Assembly (NCBI GenBank): GCA_964407715.1
Contig: CAYOWP010000015.1
Coordinates: forward strand, 1-17,460
Origin: an uncultured archaeon
Lineage (GTDB): Archaea > EX4484-52 > JAADEF01
Direction of reading: 5' to 3'
DNA length: 17,460 nucleotides
Shown one piece after another: positions 1-17,460 of the stretch (the stretch's first letter is position 1; each line of letters begins with the position of its first letter). The translations under genes were made by a program, and so were the position numbers. The notes under the pieces were generated by a model. The model ran no database searches. It was not told the DNA's origin and saw only the letters and a list, made by a program, of their open reading frames with translations.

Positions 1-465
1 TGCTTCTAATGGTGCTTTAAATGTGTAGTTATAATTTCCTTGTGAATCTGTTGATAGGGATTGATTACCATCTGAAGATACTAAATTAGTGATTGGATTA
101 TAAAGAAGTTCTGTTCCATCTAAATAGATATGAATTGTATTATTCACAACAGGACTTCCATCTGGTTGTAATATAGCTTTACCTGATATGGTTATGTTCT
201 CTTCTGGGTTTACTGTGTATTTATCCAAATTAATGGAAATTGAGATGTTTTGTACATAGAATTGAGTTGTAGGTGCAGGTATTTCCTGAGTAATGGTTGA
301 TCCATTTGCTAGAGTGGAATTAGCATAGAATGTCACTGTGTATGTGCCTAATAAATTACCAAATTCTTCAGTTATATTTAGGATTGCATACCAATATCCT
401 GTTTCTGTTTTTAGAGTGAGATTTGTTAAATAATATGGTCCATGGGTTATGCCATTAGGATCAGT
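1..465 (-). CDS. Frameshifted continuation of the large surface protein (155 open codons, runs off the window edge)
   Basis: After ...VWINI, skipping one base gives TDPNGITHGPYYLTNLT...NISISINLDKYTVNPEENITISGKAILQPDG...STDSQGNYNYTFKAPLEA with no stop to position 1. It repeats segments of the 962-aa ORF and has no start of its own. Confidence 0.85.
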
Positions 466-3349
466 GAATATTAATCCATACACTATCTATAGGATTGTCT
501 ATGTTTTTGTAAACTTTGGCTGAGATATTTATGAGAGGATTAACTGGAAGATTATCTGCATCTATATATTCTGTTCCAGAATATTCAAATGTTGCTTTTT
601 GATTTCTTATTGCTATTCTCTGCTGGATGAATGTAGTTGAGTTCTCTCCATATATTCCGTTTGGATTGGTTAGATTGACTTTGATTGTATGAGTTCCTGC
701 TTCTAATGGTGCTTTAAATGTGTAGTTATAATTTCCTTGTGAATCTGTTGATGTTATTGGTTGCTCAGAGCCTATTATTGCTGTGGGTTCTGGATCTGCA
801 TATTTGCGAACAAATACATAGTCAATATATATTCTTCGAGGATAATCGCTATTTCCTCTTACACCAAAAATAATATTCATCTCTGAAGTTGGAATATAAG
901 AAGTAAAGATATCATTATATATAGTTGATCCCCATTTTTTGTATAAATTAACCTTAGTTACTTTCCATTTTATTATTGCTTTATGATTAGTTAAAACATT
1001 TTGTGGTGCAGTATTAACTCCTGTATTTATTTTCGTTGAAGAATCTCCATTGCCAACTCCTGGTGTTTCTTTCCAATCTGCGATTCCTTCTCCAAACCCT
1101 ACAAAAGGACCATTATCTCCACTTAGAGAATATGAGATAGTTCCACCTAAAGTATTTCCTTTAAATCCATCATACTTAGTTCCTGAACCTCCCCAATCAC
1201 CATAATAATCAATAGAATATTCAAGTATAACCTCTGGTTGAAAAGATTTAACACTTTTTATATATTTCCAAGTACCATCACCAGAATTAAAGGTTATCTT
1301 ACTATCAGAAATTGAATATCCTCCTGTGTTATCGTTCCATTTGTTCACATCTATTTCTTCATCTTCAAAATCATCAAAAAACTCAAAAACATTACTTCCA
1401 TTACTCTCACTCACAGCATTTTGATTTCCATAGTAAAGATAAACCTTTGCTGTTCCATTTGCAGGAATGAATGGAACTTTTATCCATACATATGCCCATG
1501 AAGAGTTTACTTTTTGTTCTATCCAATATGGAATCTTTATTTCTTTATTTGAAGTTTCATTATAATATGTGAATCTTACATCATCAAAATCTGGTTGCAT
1601 GTGAGGAGCATAGGTTATATTTATTGGAATCTGATAATCTGTTAAGTTATTTCCTGAGTTTTCTTGGATTGTTATTGGTTTACGGTAGGTCCATCCTTGA
1701 TTATGTAAATTCACACATTCTCCTTTACAATTCCATCCTTCAACTAAGTTTAACCACATCTTTCCATCCAGCCAAATCCCAATTGTATTATTCACAACAG
1801 AACTTCCATCGGGTTCTAGGATGGCTCTACCTGATATGGTTATATTCTCCTCTGGATTCACTGTATATTTATCTAGATTTATGGAGATTGAAATATTCCA
1901 AGGATATATTGTTCCTCTTTCTCCTCTTTCATATCCACTACCACCATCAACAGAAAAAACACCCGAAAAATTATTATTCACATAATAAATAGCTATCCTA
2001 CCTCCAGATCCTCCTCCACCTTCATTATAGCTACCTGAGCCTCTATCTCCTCCTTTAGCACTAATAGTTCCTTTACCAATGAAATTCTTAGTAATTATCC
2101 ATATTGAACCTCCTGATCCACCACCAGCTCCACCATAACCTCCACCTGGTGGAGTTTCTCCGTTTGCAATAATAGAACCATTAACTATTAAAGTATCGCT
2201 AATATTAATGAATATAGCACCTCCACCATACCCTCCTCTATTCTCAGAACTTCCACCTCCACCAGAACCAAAACTTGTTGGTTGAGTTAATGAACCATAA
2301 GGAGATCCTCCACACGAACATCCGTATGATCTTCCTCCATAACCACCATAACCACCACCACATCCATCACCTCCAGCGGAGCAATATCCTCCACCTCCTG
2401 GACCTTGGCCAGTAGAGTTAATATTACCTCCAGGATATCCCTTTCCTGTTGCATCTATCTTTGCTCCTTCTTCTATAGTTAGATTCTGAGCTGTGATGTT
2501 CACATTACCACTAATATTACCTCCATTATCAATTCTTACCCAACCACCTATATTTATTTCAAATCTATCTCCTGGAGCACTATTAAGAGATCCTCCATCT
2601 TTAATCCGCAAATTACCCGTTCCATTTATACTACCGCCATCAGGTATAGTTACAGAGGAGTTTATTACACAGGTAGTATTTAAATCTCCTTCATCGCACA
2701 CCAATCCTCCAGCCCCCCAAGTTGAGAATTTAGCAACCTTTAATATGATATGAGTTTTGTTTTGCCTTGAACCTAAAATTGAGTTAAATGGTATAGATTC
2801 CCACTTTTCACATCTTTTTTCTAAAAGAGAATAGTTTTTACAATAATATATCGCATTACATCTTACTTCTTTATTTTTAGGAAGAATAATCTCCACATAG
2901 TTATAGTCTATAACATTATTTAGACCCTCTACTGTTATTAGAGGTGTATAAAGTACAATTTTTTCATTGCTTTTTTCCTTAGGTTCTGAAATCATCATTT
3001 TGAATGAAAGATTTGAAGGAATATTTTTTGTAGAGTTAATACTGATGTCCTTAACAATTAATATAACTCCCTTATCTGATAAAATTATCATATCATAAGT
3101 TTTTTCTAATAAATCACCAATAGATATTTCTCTTACGAATTTATTTTTATCTTTATCAAAGAATTTAATTTCATATGGCTGGTTGTTAGATTCATCATAA
3201 ACTGAAATCTTAACTTTTTTGTGTTTTTGAAAGGATGATATAAAATCTATTTTATTTGTTTTATAAAGAAAAAGAGAAATGTCTACAAAAAATAGAAGAA
3301 TTACTATTATTACAAGGATAACATTTAATGGTGATGTTTTATCCTGCAT
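461..3349 (-). CDS. Large membrane-anchored cell-surface protein: N-terminal TM, Gly-rich GGGxGG region, Ig-like repeat, DUF2341-like and lectin/ConA-like domains; interrupted by a frameshift
   Basis: 962-aa ORF with an N-terminal hydrophobic helix, GGGSGGSIWI/GGGSGGRIAI Gly-rich motifs, a DUF2341-type segment (WTYRKPITI..DFDDVRF..IPYWIE..WIKVP..LYYGN..FFDDFE) and many NxS/T sequons. Confidence 0.8.
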   Translation of the reverse strand: MQDKTSPLNVILVIIVILLFFVDISLFLYKTNKIDFISSFQKHKKVKISVYDESNNQPYEIKFFDKDKNKFVREISIGDLLEKTYDMIILSDKGVILIVKDISINSTKNIPSNLSFKMMISEPKEKSNEKIVLYTPLITVEGLNNVIDYNYVEIILPKNKEVRCNAIYYCKNYSLLEKRCEKWESIPFNSILGSRQNKTHIILKVAKFSTWGAGGLVCDEGDLNTTCVINSSVTIPDGGSINGTGNLRIKDGGSLNSAPGDRFEINIGGWVRIDNGGNISGNVNITAQNLTIEEGAKIDATGKGYPGGNINSTGQGPGGGGYCSAGGDGCGGGYGGYGGRSYGCSCGGSPYGSLTQPTSFGSGGGGSSENRGGYGGGAIFINISDTLIVNGSIIANGETPPGGGYGGAGGGSGGSIWIITKNFIGKGTISAKGGDRGSGSYNEGGGGSGGRIAIYYVNNNFSGVFSVDGGSGYERGERGTIYPWNISISINLDKYTVNPEENITISGRAILEPDGSSVVNNTIGIWLDGKMWLNLVEGWNCKGECVNLHNQGWTYRKPITIQENSGNNLTDYQIPINITYAPHMQPDFDDVRFTYYNETSNKEIKIPYWIEQKVNSSWAYVWIKVPFIPANGTAKVYLYYGNQNAVSESNGSNVFEFFDDFEDEEIDVNKWNDNTGGYSISDSKITFNSGDGTWKYIKSVKSFQPEVILEYSIDYYGDWGGSGTKYDGFKGNTLGGTISYSLSGDNGPFVGFGEGIADWKETPGVGNGDSSTKINTGVNTAPQNVLTNHKAIIKWKVTKVNLYKKWGSTIYNDIFTSYIPTSEMNIIFGVRGNSDYPRRIYIDYVFVRKYADPEPTAIIGSEQPITSTDSQGNYNYTFKAPLEAGTHTIKVNLTNPNGIYGENSTTFIQQRIAIRNQKATFEYSGTEYIDADNLPVNPLINISAKVYKNIDNPIDSVWINIH
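698..752. repeat. 55-bp exact intragenic repeat of positions 1-55
   Basis: tgcttctaatggtgct...gaatctgttgat is identical at 1-55 and 698-752 and encodes TDSQGNYNYTFKAPLEA. Confidence 0.95.
1781..1897. repeat. Diverged intragenic repeat of ~133-249
   Basis: Both encode NISISINLDKYTVNPEENITISGxAILxPDGSxVVNNTI, with mostly synonymous differences. Confidence 0.9.
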
Positions 3350-3728
3350 TATTTGTCACCTTAAATGAGGCTGAGATAATCTCAGCATCTTTTGGAAGTT
3401 TAATATAAGCATACTGAGGGCTATCGGAGACATTAAAAAAGCTCATATTTACAGCTAATGTAGATTGATTATTTTCATCTAAAAAATTTTTCTGCTCTTT
3501 TTTTATTCTACCTTCAGAATACACAATTATCTTGCGAATGTCTATCTTAGAAAGTTCTTCCATCTTACAAACGATTTCCTCATTACCTATCTTTATTTTA
3601 TTTAAAGTTTTTTCGACAAGTGATTTAATTTCACTCCCATAAAAATTAAAAATGATCACTCCTATTCCAATTGCAAATAATAACAACATAATTTGTGCCA
3701 ATAAAGGAGATGCAGATTTTCTTTTCAT
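3339..3728 (-). CDS. Archaeal type IV pilin-like protein (class III signal peptide)
   Basis: MKRKS-ASPLLAQIMLLLFAIGIGVIIF: short basic leader, SPL motif and hydrophobic helix. Overlaps the start of the surface protein gene. Confidence 0.65.
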   Translation of the reverse strand: MKRKSASPLLAQIMLLLFAIGIGVIIFNFYGSEIKSLVEKTLNKIKIGNEEIVCKMEELSKIDIRKIIVYSEGRIKKEQKNFLDENNQSTLAVNMSFFNVSDSPQYAYIKLPKDAEIISASFKVTNNAG

Positions 3729-3804
3729 AAAATTTAGATAAGATATCTAAAAATATTTAAAATTAATGTGATTTAGAGATCCATCCTACACTATACCTCT
3801 TTGA

Positions 3805-4280
3805 AAGTTAGTTGCCATCAAAAAACCACTTTAGAAGATTAGCTTCTGTAGGATACTTTTTGAAATATTATGTTTCCCCTTAACAAAATAAAAAAATTTG
3901 ATAGAAATGGTTAACAGGGAGGAAATCTCTTTCATTGGAGGTCTCAGAGCAGCTAACCTTAATAGAGGTTAGCTGGTTCTAAACCGAGCAAAAGATTAGA
4001 TTTCCACTTAACCAAATTTTTATTTTGATAACATAGTTAATGCGAAGAAATCGCTTTTCTGAACCACATGATAGCATGTTAACCGGCTTAAAGGTTAGTT
4101 GCTTTCTAATCCCTTTATGAGGTTAGCTGCTCCAATACGCCGAATGAACAGGTTTTGTTCTCGTTAACCATTTTTCTGAAGTTTTTACAGCATGCTAACA
4201 TTTCTTTAGGTGAGCTGCTCTGATTGGGTTGCTTGATAGTGTGTATTCCCTTTAACCAATAATGAAATTCTATTGACATG
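3805..4280. repeat. Degenerate array of bipartite repeat modules related to the 250-bp element
   Basis: AGGTTAGCTGCT-like boxes followed by TTCCnnTTAAC at 3836-3884, 3966-4012, 4120-4168 and 4208-4256 (+) and at 3910-3959 and 4036-4085 (-). Perfect 10-bp hairpin at 3950-3975. Degenerate right terminus at ~4252-4280. Confidence 0.75.
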
Positions 4281-4295
4281 AGGAAATTGCTATTA

Positions 4296-4554
4296 GGCAT
4301 TGTCCAATACTTCCATATTAATAAAATTTTGTTAAGCGGAAAGATAACCTCTTAAAGAAGCGCATTAGAGCAGCAAACCTTATAGAGCTAATGCAATTGT
4401 AAGAACGAGTTTTCTCGTTAACAAATCCTCATTAAAAAATTATTGGACATTTTGTTAACAGGAAGCAGAGCTCTATTCAAGAGGTTAAACCGCTATAAGT
4501 GCTATTTGCGCGTTAAGTTTCCGCTTAACAAATAAAGAATTATTGGATAATGTC
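4296..4554. mobile_element. MITE-like foldback repeat, copy A (259 bp)
   Basis: Termini GGCATTGTCCAATA / TATTGGATAATGTC, flanked by TA on both sides; homologous to 14144-14392 and 14904-15152; no credible ORF inside. Confidence 0.8.
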
Positions 4555-4625
4555 TACTAAGATTTAAAAATTTTACTAAAATAGAATAATTAAATTTATC
4601 TTGGTAGAAAGGAGGGGTGAAGGGA

Positions 4626-5807
4626 ATGAGGATAATTCCATTTAGGAAGTATGGAGAAAATCCAAGAGAGATATATGAAAAAGTGAGATCATATTTTAAT
4701 GAGATTTTAGAGCAAGAAAGATATACTGGCATGATAAGTGAAATCGCATCAAATTTTGATGAAAAATATAGAAATCTTGATGAGGAAGAGAAGGGAATCA
4801 TAAAGTATATTCTCTCAGGAAAACGAGGAGGATATAAGGAAGGCAAAACAAGAGAATATGATAAATTCTATAAAATTATATTAGATAAGAAACTTCCTAA
4901 GGAGGAGATTTATGGAAGGGTTGTGTCATGGAATGCTAGATTAGAGGTCCTTGAAAGATATTTCGAAATAGTAGAGAAAGTAAATAAAAAATTGAAGGAA
5001 TCTTTGGTGGCATATTCACGTGATATTCTAAGATCATACTTAGAGCAAATGGGAAAGAGAATAAATGAGAATACTAAGAATGCAATAGAGAGTTTTGTTA
5101 ATAAATATGAGGAAAAAGCAGAAGGAAGCGAAAAGAGAAGCAAGATTGCAGCTATTTTGGCAGGAGTTTCACTTATGATTGGAGGAGTTTTAACACCAGT
5201 ATATAGTCTCAATAAAGCTGGATCTGAGTCAAAGATACATATTCACGAGAATAAAACACCAAAGGTAGAGAAGCAATACAACATTGCTACTCCACAAAAA
5301 ATTCTTGATGCATTGAAGGAATATGCAAACAAAAATGATGCAAAGATTTTTATTAGGAAAAATGAAAATAAGCCAGTATATTATATTACATGGATAGATA
5401 AAACACCAGAAAGGTTAGAGCTATATAATAAAAAAGATAAATGGTTCGTAGGAAAAAGATTGGCAAGTTTTGGTGAGAAATTACAAAAATATCTAAAGAA
5501 AACATTTCAGAATATATCCACAAAAGCAGGGATAAAATCAACAAGGAAATATGCAGGATATGGCGTGGAAGTATCTTCAGAGAAAGGAAAGAATCATTAT
5601 ATTATATGGTTGGCTAGTATCAAGAAAAAACCATTAAAGAAAAAAACAGAATTAAAAGAAAGAAGAGAAGTAAGTAAAAAGATAACACATGAAAAAGTCC
5701 AAGAACTACCCGAGAAGATCAAAAAAGAAGCAAAAAAAGAGGAACAGAAGGGATATAATATTAGGATATGGGGTAGACCACTTGGTAAGGACATAATAAA
5801 AAAATAA
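4626..5807 (+). CDS. Hypothetical Lys/Glu-rich protein with one central transmembrane helix
   Basis: Long ORF (396 aa from GTG 4617). GGAGGGGTGA RBS favours ATG 4626. TM segment IAAILAGVSLMIGGVLTPVY. Family not recognised. Confidence 0.75.
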   Translation: MRIIPFRKYGENPREIYEKVRSYFNEILEQERYTGMISEIASNFDEKYRNLDEEEKGIIKYILSGKRGGYKEGKTREYDKFYKIILDKKLPKEEIYGRVVSWNARLEVLERYFEIVEKVNKKLKESLVAYSRDILRSYLEQMGKRINENTKNAIESFVNKYEEKAEGSEKRSKIAAILAGVSLMIGGVLTPVYSLNKAGSESKIHIHENKTPKVEKQYNIATPQKILDALKEYANKNDAKIFIRKNENKPVYYITWIDKTPERLELYNKKDKWFVGKRLASFGEKLQKYLKKTFQNISTKAGIKSTRKYAGYGVEVSSEKGKNHYIIWLASIKKKPLKKKTELKERREVSKKITHEKVQELPEKIKKEAKKEEQKGYNIRIWGRPLGKDIIKK

Positions 5808-7575: not shown

Positions 7576-8113
7576 GATGTGGGAGGTATTTTTCCTTTCA
7601 GGTATTGTTTTTTTACTTCTTGGAATTTTTGAATTTAAAAGATATAGAAAGGAAAAATTTAAGGAATATACAGATACAAGTAAAGCCATAAAATCTATTC
7701 TTCAGCAGAATGAGAAAAGTACATCACCTCAGCAAAATATCATAAAGAAAAAGGTTATTCCTTTGGACTTGCCCTTAGATACCATTAAATCAGAGCATCC
7801 TGAAAATAAAGAACTCGAGCAATTCTCGCAGGATAATCTTGCTACGATAACACAACCTTCTTATGACATAGAAGAAAAGAAAAGATTATGGGAAAATCAT
7901 TGGATTGTGAAGAAGGTAAAGGAGAGATTTGAAAAAAAGCAGGAGATAGAGGAACCACAAGAAAATTCTTTGCCTAATCTGTTACCTTCTCAGGAACATA
8001 GCAAAGCAGAGGAATCTATTAAGGAACAGGATGTAGAGAAAAAGCCTGAAGATGATGAGAAGAAAAAAGAGAAAGAGGAGAAGGAGTTCAATCCATTTGA
8101 TATATTTGGATAA
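7568..8113 (+). CDS. Hypothetical protein with N-terminal membrane anchor and charged low-complexity tail
   Basis: 181-aa ORF overlapping the minD stop; TM segment VFFLSGIVFLLLGIF. Confidence 0.7.
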   Translation: MNKMWEVFFLSGIVFLLLGIFEFKRYRKEKFKEYTDTSKAIKSILQQNEKSTSPQQNIIKKKVIPLDLPLDTIKSEHPENKELEQFSQDNLATITQPSYDIEEKKRLWENHWIVKKVKERFEKKQEIEEPQENSLPNLLPSQEHSKAEESIKEQDVEKKPEDDEKKKEKEEKEFNPFDIFG

Positions 8114-8118
8114 GAAAT

Positions 8119-8283
8119 CTAATACCTTTTATATGATGTAATAGAATGCTCTAAAGAAGCAGATTTTTTTCTTTCTAAATCTCTTACACGTAAAGCAATC
8201 ATTTTGTTTATCCTCTGCACCTCCTTCCAGTTTCCCAATATCAACATCTGCTTTTTCATTTCAATTAATGTCCTCAAATCCAT
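8119..8283 (-). CDS. Small basic hypothetical protein (54 aa), not in the ORF track
   Basis: MDLRTLIEMKKQMLILGNWKEVQRINKMIALRVRDLERKKSASLEHSITSYKRY*, preceded by a GGGAGGG RBS and an AT-rich TATA-like region (~8335-8350). Confidence 0.55.
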   Translation of the reverse strand: MDLRTLIEMKKQMLILGNWKEVQRINKMIALRVRDLERKKSASLEHSITSYKRY

Positions 8284-8392
8284 AGCCCAACCCTCCCATT
8301 TCTTTTATGAGTATTACAAAAAATTAAAGTATGTGATATATTTAAATATTTCTACACTTTAATATATATATTGAAGTGTATACATTCTAATA

Positions 8393-12319: not shown

Positions 12320-14056
12320 CTATTTTCTTAATATCTCCAATGCTTTCTCAACAATATCCTCGGGCATGAAAGGTCTTCCATCATATTTCAGATATTTATC
12401 ATGTATCTCTATACCTGTGTGCTCCCTTATTAATCCACCCAATTGTGAGGTATAGTTCAATTCAATCAATAAATTCTTAGCGCTATCATTGAGATAAGCT
12501 ATACTATCCTCTGTTGGAAATGGCATGAGATAGAGATAATGCAATACCCTACTTCCTATATTATGCTCTTCATATAACATCCTTTGCGCCTCTAAGCATG
12601 GCATCTTTGTGGAGCCCCAACATATCAAGTTTATTTCAGGTTCTCCTTTCTCGTACACCCTCAACCTATATATTTCCTTATCCAAGGCATTTAGTTTTTT
12701 CATTCTCTTCTCCATTTGCTTATTTCTCATCTCAATGTTTTCTGTTGTAAACCCTGTCTCATCATGTTCATAGCTGCTCACAACATGGATAGTATTTGGA
12801 TAAGATGGCAAACTTCTATATGAGATCCCATCTTCCTCATTTAGAGAATATCTTTTATACTCACTTACTTTCTCTGCTTCTTCATAACTTAAAAGCTTCC
12901 CTCTATCTATTTTCAACTTGGATGTATCAAATCTTGGAATTGATTGATATGATGTGCAGAGATACTTATCTAATAGCACAATTACAGGTGTTTGAAGTTT
13001 TTCTGCAATATTAAATGCATCAAAAACAGCATAAAACGTCTCTTCCACATCTCCTGGAGCTATGACCACTCTTGGAGTTTCTCCCTGAGCAGCATGCATT
13101 ACAAATCTTAAGTCACCTTGCTCTGTATAAGTAGGCATGCCAGTACTAGGAGAGCCTCTCTGACCTTCAATTATCACTATTGGAAGTTCCATTAATCCTG
13201 CCATACCCAATGCCTCAACCATTAATGCAAATCCACCTCCTGATGTAGCAGCCATGCTTCTTGCTCCAGCAAATGAAGCACCGATCACGCTATTTATAGC
13301 CGCGATCTCATCCTCTGTTTGCTTTACCACAATCTTCTTTTTCTTTTCATACTTTGACATTAGGGTTAAGATGGGAGAGGTTGGTGTCATGGGATACATA
13401 CCAACATATTTTACACCTGCCTTTATAGCACCCAATACAGCTGCTGTGTTGCCATCCATGAACAGTCTTTCCTTATCTCTTTTTATCATATCTATCTTAA
13501 CCTTATAAAAGACATCCCTAACTTGAGAGAAGCCCAAATGAAATGCCTTTTTATTAACTTCTATGATTTCTTGAGATTTTCCTTTGAACGTATCTTCTAT
13601 TACCTCTTCAACTATGGATTTGTTCATATCAAGTATGCTTGCCACAACACCCAAAGCAATCATGTTATAATACTTTATCTCCCCAATCTCAGAGAGAAGT
13701 TTATTGAATGGAATTGCGATAAAGGAAATATCATCTCTTTTAACTGATGGTTCAAATGAGGCATCATGGATAATCATTCCCTCAGGTGATATCTCATGTA
13801 TATGCTTCTCTATACTCAGATTGTCAAATGCCACAAGTATATTTACATTTTTGTTTTGAGAATATATAGCATGCTTAGATGCCCTTATATGAACCATGTT
13901 GTGACCGCCTTTTATCAATGAAGGATAATCATCATACACAAAGACATTCCATCCATGTCTCTTTATTGCCCTTCCAATAGAGATTCCAAGGCTTATAATC
14001 CCTGCACCTGCCGGACCACCAACCATTATCCCTACTTCCGATTCCTTGCCGCTCAT
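12320..14056 (-). CDS. korA: 2-oxoacid:ferredoxin oxidoreductase alpha subunit (gamma-alpha fusion)
   Basis: GGPAGAGI, IKGGH, YPMTPTS, EDEIAA, ATSGGGFALM, QRGSPSTGMPT, WGST, KYDGRPF. ATG 14056 or GTG 14062 after GGTGAG. Confidence 0.95.
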   Translation of the reverse strand: MSGKESEVGIMVGGPAGAGIISLGISIGRAIKRHGWNVFVYDDYPSLIKGGHNMVHIRASKHAIYSQNKNVNILVAFDNLSIEKHIHEISPEGMIIHDASFEPSVKRDDISFIAIPFNKLLSEIGEIKYYNMIALGVVASILDMNKSIVEEVIEDTFKGKSQEIIEVNKKAFHLGFSQVRDVFYKVKIDMIKRDKERLFMDGNTAAVLGAIKAGVKYVGMYPMTPTSPILTLMSKYEKKKKIVVKQTEDEIAAINSVIGASFAGARSMAATSGGGFALMVEALGMAGLMELPIVIIEGQRGSPSTGMPTYTEQGDLRFVMHAAQGETPRVVIAPGDVEETFYAVFDAFNIAEKLQTPVIVLLDKYLCTSYQSIPRFDTSKLKIDRGKLLSYEEAEKVSEYKRYSLNEEDGISYRSLPSYPNTIHVVSSYEHDETGFTTENIEMRNKQMEKRMKKLNALDKEIYRLRVYEKGEPEINLICWGSTKMPCLEAQRMLYEEHNIGSRVLHYLYLMPFPTEDSIAYLNDSAKNLLIELNYTSQLGGLIREHTGIEIHDKYLKYDGRPFMPEDIVEKALEILRK

Positions 14057-14143
14057 GCTCACTCACCACAATTCAAAGTGAAGACTATAATAATTATTTA
14101 GTATCTCAGAGAATATAAAGATTTTTGGAAGAGCTGTGGGATT

Positions 14144-14392
14144 GGCATTGTCCAATAATTTTCTATTTGTTAAGCGGAAGAGTAACCTCTTAAAGAAGCG
14201 CATTAAAGTAGCGAACCTTATAGAGCTAATGTGATTATAAGAGCAAGATTTCTCGTTAACAAATCCTCATCAAAAATTATTGGACAATTTGTTAACGGGA
14301 AGCATAGCCATATTCAAAGGGTTAACTGCTCTCATGCGCTTCTGTGAGAGGTAATGTTTCCGCTTAACAATAAAGAATTATTGAACAAAGCC
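14144..14392. mobile_element. MITE-like foldback repeat, copy B (249 bp)
   Basis: GGCATTGTCCAATAAT...ATTATTGAACAAAGCC; about 17 substitutions from copy C by hand alignment; arms are imperfect reverse complements. Confidence 0.85.
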
Positions 14393-14460
14393 CCTTTGAT
14401 GTTTTTCATTAAACAACATTTTTAAACTTTAGATGAACTATATTCTTATAAGGTGGTAGA

Positions 14461-14649
14461 ATGTCTCGGGTAAGGTATGCAACTAAGGAGGATATAGAGA
14501 GGTTAGAAAGGAAAATTGATCTCATTCTTACATGTTTAGAAGAGGAGTTTATTGATATAGAGGAATTGCAGGAGGGTCTAAAAGAGATTAAAGATGGAAA
14601 AGTTGTTTCATTAGATGAATATATAAAGAAGAGGAGATTAAATGTATAA
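14461..14649 (+). CDS. Putative type II antitoxin (RelB-like)
   Basis: 62 aa, acidic, ending EELQEGLKEIKDGKVVSLDEY; overlaps the toxin start; AGGTGG RBS. Confidence 0.8.
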   Translation: MSRVRYATKEDIERLERKIDLILTCLEEEFIDIEELQEGLKEIKDGKVVSLDEYIKKRRLNV

Positions 14650-14899
14650 AATCATACTAACCAAGAAGTCCGAAAAGATCTTAGATAGGATAAAAGATGA
14701 GAAACTACTAAAATATATCATAAAGTCTCTCAAAAAATTAGAGCACAGCCCATACATTGGCAAGAAGTTAAGGGGGTTTGACTCTCTTTACAGAATAAGA
14801 GTTGGCAAATTTAGAATAATTTATAAAATAGATGAAAAAGAGAAGGTTATTTATATTGTCTTAATAGACAAAAGGTCAAGGGTTTATAAAAGGATTTGA
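14642..14899 (+). CDS. relE: RelE/ParE-family type II toxin
   Basis: 85 aa, basic; MYKIILT..., GKKLRG..LYRIRVGKFRIIYKID, RSRVYK. Confidence 0.93.
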   Translation: MYKIILTKKSEKILDRIKDEKLLKYIIKSLKKLEHSPYIGKKLRGFDSLYRIRVGKFRIIYKIDEKEKVIYIVLIDKRSRVYKRI

Positions 14900-14903
14900 T
14901 GTT

Positions 14904-15152
14904 GGCGTTGTCCAATAATCCTCTATTTGTTAAGCGGAAGAGTAACCTCTTAAAGAAGAGTATTAGAGCAGCAAATCTTATAGAGCTAATGCGATTATAA
15001 GAGCAAGATTTCTCGTTAACAAATCCTCATCAAAAATTATTGGACAATTTGTTAACGGGAAGCATAGCCCTATTCAAAGGGTTAACTGCTCTCATGCGCT
15101 TCTGTGAGAGGTTACATTTCGGCTTAACAATAAAGAATTATTGGACAATGCC
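14904..15152. mobile_element. MITE-like foldback repeat, copy C (249 bp)
   Basis: GGCGTTGTCCAATAAT...ATTATTGGACAATGCC; direct repeat of copy B. Confidence 0.85.
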
Positions 15153-15242
15153 TTAATTGATCTTGTTTCCTAAATCTTTTTATAAATCAAATTTCTTTTG
15201 TGTGGTCATACATATATGGGGTTTATCCCCCTATATATGTTT

Positions 15243-15256
15243 TATTGGACAATGCC
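15243..15256. repeat. Orphan right terminal repeat of the element
   Basis: TATTGGACAATGCC is the exact reverse complement of the first 14 bp of copies A and B; preceded by a hairpin at 15210-15240. Confidence 0.85.
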
Positions 15257-15747
15257 TATGAAATACGCTCGTTAGTTTTTCTGTCAAATATGTTTATCTT
15301 TAAATCAGCAGTAAGTCCAAAATTTGTGTTTTGCCAATGATGGATGCCTATTATAAGTTCATATTGCAGTTTTATTTTATCTGAATGGTCATAACTTTCA
15401 GTAATTTCCTTAATTATCCTCAAAGTTGATCCCAATTCCTTTAATTGCCAGGATGTTGCTATGTTCTCAGACAGCATATCAAGAAGATATTTTCTGAAGA
15501 TCATACCGAATAAAGAACTATTCACATCTATTTCTTCAGAATGAGATTTGATATCATTTCCGTAATAGTAAACTGTGTTTCCTATTCTCTTTCTCCATTT
15601 ACCTGACGAGAAACTTTCATCATAGTGAGCTTTTGAAACTTTTATTTTCCGTGGATACTGAGCGATTGGATAAATGTTAATGTATAAAACCCCTGAAGTT
15701 CCTCTCGCTAAGCTCTCAACATCCATAAAATTATCTAACCCCATCAT
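15256..15747 (-). pseudogene. Truncated N-L1-L2 subunit of a split prokaryotic Argonaute (AfAgo-N-like)
   Basis: SGVLYINIYPI, GKWRKRIG, FRKYLLDMLSENIATSWQLKELGSTLR and KLQYELII..HHWQNTNFG match Archaeoglobus fulgidus AfAgo-N as I recall it. Start ATG 15747 follows GGTGAGGTG and overlaps the OLD stop. The TAG stop is formed at the junction with the orphan terminus. Confidence 0.75.
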
Positions 15748-17401
15748 GATTAAACACCTCACCCAAAATAGTTTTGGTCTCACTTAAAAAGGAAGGATAG
15801 TAGTCAGGATATTCATTGAAAATCTTGTTAATAATAAATCTTAGTTTTTGACCTTTTCTCAGATTTAGAGTTCTTGCTTCATCTTCAAAGTTGGAATATT
15901 TATTATATTTCCCATTGTTTTCACAGTAACTGGTAAAATCTTCCTTTAATGCAGTCTCTATATTTCCTTTGAATATGAGTAATCTTTGTTTAAATCTCGC
16001 AGTCAATAATTTAAAAGTTTCATTTTCTCCTATATCCTCAATATCTTCAGCGTTTACATCAAAACAATCAGCAATGATCTTATTATTTCTTTCTGATTCT
16101 GGCTTATCAATATCGTTATCAAAAACAACTAGCATAGGTATTCCAAACTTATAGAATAATCTCCAATATTTTGGGATTTGGGATTTGCCTCCAACCCTAA
16201 TTACAGATATTCCTAGTTTATCTGGATCAAACCTTATTTTCTTAAGAAATACTGGAAAGCATAACTCTTCTGTTTCTCCTTCTACTAGAATAACATATCT
16301 TGCAAAGAAAGCTTCTTTTAATTTTTCATTGGAGGTTATGGCGTAAAATTCAGTGATGTTATCTACTGTAGAGCGACCACTTGCTCCTGTTTCATTCGAA
16401 AAATCAACAAGCTCTTGCTTTGTAACCTGTCTAATTTTTGTCCCCTCATCAGGATTTTTATAGACGAGAGCGATATTTTCAAAATGTTCTGTTTCAATGA
16501 ATGAGGAGGAATGGGTTGTAATTATTATTTGAATGTTAGAATCTTTAACTATATCTTTGAAAACATGTAATAAATGCCTTCTCGCCTGAGGATGCATATA
16601 TATCTCGGGTTCTTCAATAATTAACAACCCTTGAGCCTCTTGTTTGAAATTTTTTGCGTAAGCTCTTAATAGAGATAGGACTATTAAGTTTCGGGTTCCT
16701 TCTCCTAGTTCTTCAATATCTATGTCATAATTTTCTCCTAAAACCTTATCATTTACGAGAATATTAATCGTTTTAAAATAATTTAATGGTGTAAAAGGCT
16801 TGAAATCAACTTTTAACTTATAAGAGGCTGTTGTTTGGAGTTCTTCAAAAAATAGCGCAAAATCTTCTTTGAACTGTTTAAATTCCCCTATTTTGTCAAA
16901 AACATCCATTATTTCATTAAACTTTTTTTCCAATTCTTCTGTTAAATTACTTTCTTTTATGCGTTTATTAAGAGCCTGCGCAATTTTCCCCATTAAAGTC
17001 CATTTATGGAATGACAATGTTTGAGAAATATTTCTCTGTGCTGGAAGATAAATACATGGGAAATCTTCTTTAACATTACCCTGAGAAGGCCAGATTCGAT
17101 TGCCATTTTCATCAAAATATTTAGGCCATTCTCCCTCATCACTTTCGAACTCCACACGTCTTCCATTATCGAATTCGATCTTAATCTCGATTGTGTTGTT
17201 GGGATCTCTCATATAAAAATCGATTGGATCAATATCTTTTCCCCACCATGTTTCCCCAAGAATATTATTAAGCGTTCTTACTATGTTAGATTTCCCTGCA
17301 TTATTAGCACCCACCATAATCATTAAACCGCTTTCTGGAAAACGAAACTCAAGATTTTTTATAGAACGAAAATTCTTTATGTAAACCTTACTTATTTTCA
17401 T
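15731..17401 (-). CDS. OLD-family ATP-dependent nuclease (ABC ATPase + TOPRIM)
   Basis: IKNFRSI, Walker A GANNAGKS, ELGEG signature, Walker B IIEEPE..MHP, ITTHS, TOPRIM ILVEGETE and FDND. GAGGAGGTG RBS favours ATG 17401. Confidence 0.93.
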   Translation of the reverse strand: MKISKVYIKNFRSIKNLEFRFPESGLMIMVGANNAGKSNIVRTLNNILGETWWGKDIDPIDFYMRDPNNTIEIKIEFDNGRRVEFESDEGEWPKYFDENGNRIWPSQGNVKEDFPCIYLPAQRNISQTLSFHKWTLMGKIAQALNKRIKESNLTEELEKKFNEIMDVFDKIGEFKQFKEDFALFFEELQTTASYKLKVDFKPFTPLNYFKTINILVNDKVLGENYDIDIEELGEGTRNLIVLSLLRAYAKNFKQEAQGLLIIEEPEIYMHPQARRHLLHVFKDIVKDSNIQIIITTHSSSFIETEHFENIALVYKNPDEGTKIRQVTKQELVDFSNETGASGRSTVDNITEFYAITSNEKLKEAFFARYVILVEGETEELCFPVFLKKIRFDPDKLGISVIRVGGKSQIPKYWRLFYKFGIPMLVVFDNDIDKPESERNNKIIADCFDVNAEDIEDIGENETFKLLTARFKQRLLIFKGNIETALKEDFTSYCENNGKYNKYSNFEDEARTLNLRKGQKLRFIINKIFNEYPDYYPSFLSETKTILGEVFNHDGVR

Positions 17402-17459
17402 GTCCAAACACCTCCTCTAAAATACTTTCTTTCATCTCCTCGAGCTGGGTTATCTGATT
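17388..17459 (-). CDS. C-terminal end of an upstream gene, possibly type I restriction-modification specificity subunit HsdS
   Basis: NQITQLEEMKESILEEVFGHENK* overlaps the OLD start and resembles the LEELKxSILxxAF terminal helix of HsdS; only 23 residues visible. Confidence 0.45.
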   Translation of the reverse strand, partial: NQITQLEEMKESILEEVFGHENK

Positions 17460-17460
17460 C

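Follow-up and report, generated by a model that had tools for sequence, protein, structure and literature searches.

A decayed AfAgo-type Argonaute cassette beside an intact OLD nuclease gene in an uncultured archaeon

At one end of a contig from an uncultured archaeon, an intact gene for an OLD-family nuclease overlaps a gene for one subunit of a split Argonaute, and the latter gene ends abruptly after 163 codons. The question raised by this locus is whether the two genes are the remains of one defence system, in which the nuclease acted as effector, or whether an Argonaute cassette has decayed next to a nuclease that works on its own. The window, i.e., the whole stretch of DNA that was analysed, is the entire contig C15 (CAYOWP010000015.1; 17,460 nucleotides) of assembly GCA_964407715.1, which consists of 16 contigs with 898,521 bases, is 92% complete and has a GC content of about 32%. 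All gene coordinates are positions within the window, and both defence genes are on its minus strand. The answer developed below is that the window holds a decayed copy of a published defence system in a new host, and not a new system. The full reading, in which a decayed AfAgo-type cassette lies beside an intact, autonomous OLD gene inside a defence island led by a type I restriction-modification (R-M) operon, is one that we regard as probable.

The truncated gene, here called AgoN and in its broken form AgoN′, extends over 15256..15747 (minus strand) and has 163 codons followed by TAG when the ATG at 15747 is taken as its start; the GTG at 15783, which is listed among the open reading frames (ORFs), gives 175 codons. 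It shares 17 nucleotides (15731-15747) with the OLD gene. An earlier note on this DNA had described an intact OLD gene overlapping a 163-codon gene that ends abruptly, together spanning 15256-17401, and the ORF list, Pfam and alignment confirm this exactly. Matches to Protein Data Bank chains, together with alignment, identify the product as the N-L1-L2 subunit of a split long-B prokaryotic Argonaute (pAgo). It matches the AfAgo-N chains 8ok9_C (E = 1.8e-63) and 8pvv_C with E values of about 2e-63, far beyond chance, and is 67% identical to AfAgo-N of Archaeoglobus fulgidus over 147 residues, so that the close homology suggested by the earlier note stands. Residues 29-175 of the GTG-started form pair with residues 31-177 of the 264-residue AfAgo-N chain, and the alignment stops at the end of the query.

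That the gene is truncated, and not naturally short, follows from its relatives. The database holds 53 of them, with identities of 62-100%, and most have 243-259 amino acids (aa). In an alignment of 18 sequences the window protein ends with ...NERIS and the other 17 all carry about 86 further conserved residues, which means that the relatives have no natural end at residue 163. What is missing is the final 86 residues of a family of about 249 aa; the truncation after ...RIS that the earlier note had proposed is upheld, and the contrary case of homologues that naturally end at this position fails. When the assembly was searched by tblastn with five full-length relatives, the matches covered residues 1-163 only and residues 164-249 were not found, nor did any repeat end carry the partner flank, so that the search for the lost C-terminus elsewhere in the genome, as the earlier note had recommended, gave none. 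No match to the Piwi domain PF02171 occurs anywhere in the 898-kb assembly, in line with the claim that the MID-PIWI gene is gone. No Aga2/Af1317-like gene follows AgoN′ in the window, where sequence of a miniature inverted-repeat transposable element (MITE) is found, the other contigs not having been searched with an Aga2-like query. The ratio of nonsynonymous to synonymous substitution rates for the 162 surviving codons is 0.11-0.20 against seven intact relatives, and since this falls inside the range for pairs of intact genes (0.09-0.35), the break looks recent. The remnant of 163 aa has no partner and is probably functionless.

What the complete cassette looks like can be seen in related loci, of which 19 distinct ones were obtained by scanning collections of genomes and metagenomes (L003 and L020 are one contig). 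A gene for a MID-PIWI Argonaute (Ago) follows AgoN in 16 of them; one further contig ends inside AgoN, and the other two carry remnants. After Ago comes an Aga2/Af1317-like gene in all ten loci that reach far enough. The order AgoN, MID-PIWI Ago, Aga2-like is shared with the system of A. fulgidus (fAfAgo; Manakova et al. 2024, PMC10954474; structures 8ok9 and 8pvv). That paper equates AfAgo-N with Aga1 and Af1317 with Aga2 of Sulfolobus islandicus, assigns the effector class to the gene downstream of Argonaute and not upstream (section 26), and gives AfAgo-N of strain DSM 4304 a length of 172 aa after a 2-bp deletion. AgoN-Ago-Aga2 is an AfAgo-type split, catalytically inactive long-B Argonaute system. 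By way of the equations just given, it resembles SiAgo-Aga1-Aga2 and other long-B pAgo systems with downstream effectors. In these, detection of the invader is the task of an inactive Argonaute, and the cell is killed by a membrane or enzymatic effector encoded downstream, but no surviving sensing or killing part was identified in the window genome. In DSM 4304 the partner gene is broken, as it is in the window. There, however, the break is a frameshift, whereas in the window it is at a MITE end, without an Argonaute gene in the assembly and without an effector gene downstream.

The nature of the break is seen most directly in comparison with L004, a 2.4-kb metagenome contig with an intact AgoN that is 88% identical to the window AgoN as protein. 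When the two are aligned as DNA, the similarity runs up to ...CGTATTTCATA (...TTTCATA) and then stops abruptly. L004 stays coding beyond this point, and the window carries GGCATTGTCCAATAA, which is the 15-mer terminal inverted repeat of a MITE-like family with a length of about 250 nucleotides. The TAG stop of AgoN′ is built at this joint: its T and A were part of a Tyr codon of the uninterrupted gene, and its G belongs to the repeat end. The solo terminal repeat (TTATTGGACAATGCC on the plus strand), placed by the L004 alignment and a repeat scan, occupies 15242..15256 and abuts the break. Between it and MITE copy 2 (14902..15152; 251 nucleotides, 93% identical to copy 1) is a stretch of 89 nucleotides (15153..15241) that is near-unique in the genome: the repeat end itself aside, BLAST against the genome gives a match of 24 nucleotides in contig C6 only. 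MITE copy 1 (14142..14392; 251 nucleotides) lies 80 nucleotides from the start of ORF 12320-14062, which encodes a housekeeping-looking protein of 580 aa, and a partial copy is found near 4300-4550. Neither a MITE end as the cause of the truncation nor the hsdS tail described below had been mentioned in the earlier note.

The family has dozens of copies, with 120 matches to its repeat end genome-wide when at most two mismatches are allowed. Its terminal inverted repeats of 15-16 nucleotides, its size, its copy number and its lack of coding sequence are those of prokaryotic MITEs, but the junction in the window differs in being a solo end followed by 89 unrelated nucleotides, without a target duplication. 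A scan for an autonomous, transposase-bearing copy listed seven pairs of repeat ends at a distance of 700-2500 nucleotides, two of them in the window. tRNA and Rfam scans of the window gave no matches, and for this reason no attachment site or RNA gene is assigned to the break. In X1, the run from which the assembly probably derives, a Logan contig spans 15125-15387 with 0 differences; the joint between AgoN′ and the repeat is therefore present in the reads and not merely in the bin. The most likely cause of the truncation is, we infer, a MITE insertion followed by a deletion, e.g., by recombination between MITE copies. AgoN would in this way have been cut after codon 163 at a terminal repeat of the element, and loss of the AgoN remainder, of the MID-PIWI gene and of the membrane-effector gene would have left the Argonaute cassette dead.

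The same repeats may also have misled the assembly. If the MITE insertion was a simple one and the contig is misjoined, the 3′ part of AgoN, Ago and Aga2 would persist, unassembled or unbinned, behind the repeat. Contigs do break at MITE ends, of which there are the 120 matches just mentioned, and the assembly is 92% complete. Over the MITE copies (14046-14414 and 14907-15152) the summed contig depth in the probable source run is 250-660, compared with 14-27 over unique sequence, i.e., 10- to 40-fold higher, which agrees with a high copy number of the family, and no Logan contig spans them. Yet the 89-nucleotide stretch and the right end of MITE copy 2 are bridged to AgoN′ with 0 differences, and what is bridged is not a continuation of AgoN. 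The AgoN 3′ part, a PIWI gene and a matching target duplication are all absent from the 16 contigs, and no Aga2-like gene lies downstream in the window. Even under a misjoin, moreover, the gene is interrupted by the stop codon at the junction. We consider it very unlikely that the truncation reflects an assembly limit, and retain the reading in which the cassette itself has decayed.

The OLD gene (15731..17401, minus strand) is intact and encodes 556 aa with an ABC-type ATPase and a TOPRIM domain, and is class-1-like according to Pfam, PADLOC and structure matches. Its start is placed at the ATG at 17401; the TTG at 17407 in the ORF list would add two codons. Pfam gives AAA_15 (3.6e-44), AAA_21 (2.8e-20) and the OLD-like TOPRIM family PF20469 (1.5e-23, residues 367-432), and the PADLOC model 'Old' (6.1e-58) outranks AriA and many GajA models, the best of which reaches 1.1e-43. 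The nearest full-length homologues (P0056 and P0058-P0068) have 548-574 aa and identities of 62-84%, and one entry with 97% identity is a partial sequence of 478 aa. In an alignment of 13 sequences the window protein departs from none of the invariant columns in the ATPase and TOPRIM motifs. The invariant residues are, in the ATPase, G31, G36, K37, S38 and E263-E264-P265-E266, which we take to be the P-loop and the acidic Walker B region, and in the TOPRIM domain E374, E378, E379 and D428-N429-D430.

Among solved structures, the window protein matches the class 1 OLD of Thermus scotoductus best (6p74, E = 1.3e-33), and GajA chains at only about 2e-6. With the class 1 OLDs (P2 Old and 6p74) the window protein has in common the ABC ATPase and TOPRIM pair, a fitting length of 556 aa and the absence of an adjacent UvrD-type helicase. 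Gabija (GajA/GajB, a class 2 OLD system) has the same domain pair, and many PADLOC GajA models match the window protein. Gabija has GajB, however, whereas no gene for this UvrD/PcrA-type helicase stands beside the window OLD, whose neighbours are an hsdS tail and AgoN′; in addition, the match to GajA structures is weaker and the score of the 'Old' model is better. Judging from family membership, OLD most likely acts independently, as a class-1-type ATP-dependent TOPRIM nuclease against invading DNA, and it would not be the effector of the Argonaute.

How, then, did OLD come to overlap AgoN? Consider which gene occupies the position directly upstream of AgoN, overlapping it, in the 19 loci. By Pfam this gene is HsdS, the specificity subunit of type I R-M, in ten of them (nine separate HsdS and one HsdM-S fusion), and two more contigs, too short for Pfam, carry an hsdS-like tail. 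An OLD C-terminus is found there in two loci only, L004 (30 residues, 100% identity) and L008 (52 residues, 71%). Five loci are uninformative or different upstream of AgoN (L002, L016, L018, L019 and L003/L020). With OLD before AgoN in two of 19 loci and hsdS in ten, the view that OLD is a regular partner of the cassette is not supported.

The window itself contains the 3′ end of an hsdS gene (17388..17460, minus strand), recognized by translation and alignment, which runs off the contig end and overlaps the start of OLD. The 59 nucleotides before OLD, which read NQITQLEEMKESILEEVFGHENK followed by a stop codon, match up position by position with the ends of hsdS in L001, L006 and L010, and the ATG of OLD occupies the exact place that the ATG of AgoN has in other loci. 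The last 25 or so nucleotides before the AgoN start are alike whether hsdS or OLD is upstream. This stretch, of the form ATTTTGGnTGAGGTGTTTAATCATG, gives the upstream protein its tail ILxEVFNH and includes GAGGTG as well as an ATG. A scan for this motif gives exactly two matches in the 898-kb genome, one at each end of OLD. Junction copy 1 (17399..17423, minus strand; 25 nucleotides) comprises the hsdS tail, the GAGGTG ribosome-binding site and the ATG of OLD; copy 2 (15745..15769, minus strand) comprises the C-terminal tail of OLD (ILGEVFNH) and the ATG of AgoN, and the two are identical at 19 of 25 positions. One match precedes AgoN in 15 of the 19 loci (L001, L003-L015 and L019), whatever the upstream gene. 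The 25-nucleotide motif looks like a joint for translational coupling and, at the same time, a boundary between cassettes, and because it is present at both ends of OLD, OLD is best seen as a cassette that was slotted into an existing hsdS-AgoN junction.

The overlap admits another interpretation, namely that OLD and the split Argonaute form a four-gene system in which OLD is a nuclease effector triggered by guide-directed recognition; the window would then have lost the sensor and kept the effector, as the earlier note supposed. Consistent with this are the 17-nucleotide overlap itself, the conserved ribosome-binding junction shared by the tail of OLD and the start of AgoN, and the recurrence of the OLD-AgoN adjacency in L004 and L008 and probably in runs X3 and X4, where 30 loose letters were compared by eye. 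But exactly the same overlap and junction tie AgoN to hsdS in 10-12 loci without OLD, and the two junction copies that bracket OLD are what is expected of an insertion into the hsdS-AgoN joint. An Aga2-like gene, which belongs to the effector class given in PMC10954474 as the gene downstream of Argonaute, is already present in every complete locus, and the role of OLD as retained effector is not borne out. In the representative genome of A. fulgidus, a low-GC island of about 3.5 kb contains only the Af1317-like gene, AfAgo and the broken AfAgo-N; tblastn with the window OLD finds no match in it, so that the earlier note's statement that AfAgo-N is encoded with an OLD nuclease fails, and the word OLD is absent from the available text of PMC10954474. 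The OLD-linked AgoNs, furthermore, are not one clade: in the AgoN tree the window pairs with L004 (support 93/94) and L008 with the hsdS-linked L013 (81/75, weak), which fits gain or loss at the junction. Finally, the closest solved structure is of class 1, and the OLD review (PMC10568477) describes this class as single genes away from other defence genes, a description from which the window OLD departs by overlapping hsdS and AgoN. We regard the four-gene system as quite improbable, and continue with OLD as an independent gene inserted at the junction.

Among the proteins enriched near pAgos, the available text of Ryazansky et al. (2018) includes HsdS, and OLD is absent from its main text as available. 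In its available part, the OLD review (PMC10568477) treats classes 1-3, mentions class 4 once and names Argonautes in the introduction only. Literature searches found no paper describing an OLD-pAgo unit in the texts available, the supplementary neighbourhood tables of which may hold such cases.

An OLD that is 97% identical to the window OLD is present in X3 and X4, two runs of other studies. It is flanked by loose ends of 30 letters, of which, by eye, one resembles the tail of hsdS and the other the start of an AgoN-like gene; this is no more than a hint. Since similarity to the window stops at 15746 in both runs, it was considered that OLD occurs there without an AgoN downstream; this was rejected, because the loose letters look like the beginning of AgoN in other alleles, and a more divergent allele below the 90% threshold probably explains why the similarity stops. 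As printed, the loose letters reach TAA after six codons, and 30 letters are too few for a conclusion. Zero cover in runs X2-X4 carries no evidential weight.

The hsdS tail in the window leads to the remainder of the R-M operon. Contig C5 carries at 2-5705 (locus L033) the genes hsdR, hsdM, an ORF of 178 aa and hsdS, the last of which runs off the contig start. The Pfam families ResIII/EcoEI_R_C, N6_Mtase/HsdM_N and Methylase_S identify hsdR, hsdM and hsdS of a type I R-M system together, and the 178-aa ORF between hsdM and hsdS (L033 1212-1748) matches no Pfam family. The first bases of C5 overlap the last 23 nucleotides of the window (17438-17460), with 22 of them identical and the reading frame continuous, so that C5 and C15 are probably adjacent. 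The locus would thus be a horizontally acquired island with all genes in one direction, where hsdR-hsdM-orf-hsdS on C5 is followed by OLD and this by AgoN-Ago-Aga2. Variable genes are found between hsdM and hsdS also elsewhere (L006 3288-4746, L010 3080-4765, L012 2992-4731, L015 3268-4723 and, as said, L033 1212-1748); the inserts consist of DUF6731 with a small ORF or of unassigned proteins (561-579 aa), and in L033 of the 178-aa ORF. The R-M operon seems to host several cassette slots.

That the cassette is shared horizontally, as the earlier note had it, is supported by its distribution. The phylum comparison set consists of 41 other genomes (42 with the host), and in these 41 there is neither an AgoN nor a match to the window OLD at E ≤ 1e-20. 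HsdR and HsdM of C5 are 94% and 97% identical to their counterparts in L001, which belongs to a 2.2-Mb genome named 'uncultured bacterium', outside the 42 genomes of the phylum. The GC content of the island is 30-34% in all loci. This equals the GC content of the host in the present case (32%), but is far below that of the flanks in A. fulgidus (31% in the island, 50% in the flanks) and in L018. The fAfAgo island, which is foreign by GC in A. fulgidus, thus differs from the window cassette in this respect, and also in being without hsdS or OLD, whereas the window cassette follows both. Viral contigs that were scanned with the AgoN alignment and with OLD contained no relatives.

Several observations weigh against the picture of a decayed cassette next to an autonomous OLD in an R-M-led island. 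No single Logan contig bridges MITE copies 1 and 2, and for this reason it is the original assembly that connects AgoN′ with the housekeeping genes; with 16 contigs and 92% completeness, the genes that are missing may have escaped assembly or binning. There is no target-site duplication at the junction, since genome-wide no second repeat end has the flank TATTTCATA or its complement, and the order of events, insertion before deletion, is because of this one that we can only infer. The join between C5 and C15 consists of 23 nucleotides with one mismatch. The OLD-AgoN overlap is retained in L004 and L008 at OLD tail identities of 71-100%, which allows a functional link between OLD and Argonaute, and the letters that by eye resemble an AgoN start after OLD in X3 and X4 count in the same direction.

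A more far-reaching proposal starts from the junction. If the 25 nucleotides are a cassette-exchange site at which whole defence genes, in the present case OLD, enter or leave between a type I R-M operon and the split-Argonaute cassette, with translational coupling kept through each exchange, then R-M, OLD and pAgo would be expressed as one unit and might cooperate, e.g., by nuclease products feeding the guide loading of the Argonaute, and low-GC vent archaea like the host, which has a small genome with the same GC content as the island, would be in the long-sought low-GC donor pool of the AfAgo island. This we hold to be rather unlikely.

Some further features of the cassette and its surroundings should be described. 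When the window at 15100-15800 is compared with L004 at 1-700, the similarity is a mosaic: few or no differences are found in the OLD tail and in AgoN codons 13-100, a short patch within AgoN codons 1-12 is divergent, and from codon 100 on the identity drops to about 85%. This mosaic suggests recombination among cassette alleles. Decayed, frameshifted AgoN remnants are found in L003/L020 at 8001-8370 (residues 1-126) and in L019 at 3653-4019 (residues 1-122), and among these the copy in an Archaeoglobaceae metagenome-assembled genome sits amid the housekeeping genes for prepilin peptidase and CoaBC. Given these further remnants, the AgoN cassette appears to have been lost repeatedly.

Between the two MITE copies of the window lies a two-gene cassette (14461..14899, plus strand), which consists of an ORF of 62 aa (14461-14649) without a match to any family and a gene for a ParE/RelE-family toxin of 85 aa (14642-14899; ParE_toxin, 5e-12). 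The 9-mer TTTGATGTT occurs just to the right of MITE copy 1 (14393-14403) and just to the left of copy 2 (14893-14903), so that direct 9-mers bound the ParE-type toxin-antitoxin cassette on the inner sides of the MITEs. Speculatively, this layout would fit a small circular DNA with a MITE that recombined with a MITE in the chromosome and was thereby integrated.

As a pseudogenised copy of a published system, the window cassette offers no new mechanism; four points are of some value. In metagenomes from hydrothermal vents and sediments, the AfAgo-type cassette is in circulation among genomes of low GC content, where it is usually joined directly to a type I R-M operon at the 3′ end of the latter; the A. 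fulgidus model strain lacks this arrangement. It has also decayed repeatedly, by the 2-bp deletion in DSM 4304, in the remnants of L003/L020 and L019, and by the MITE-linked truncation in the window, and this fits a quick loss of costly abortive-infection systems. L004, with its intact and 88% identical AgoN, provides natural sequence with which OLD could be tested in the presence and in the absence of the Argonaute module. OLD, finally, is an optional insert at the hsdS-AgoN weld, with duplicated junctions on each side, and thereby gives a concrete, testable example of how a defence island may be assembled gene by gene.

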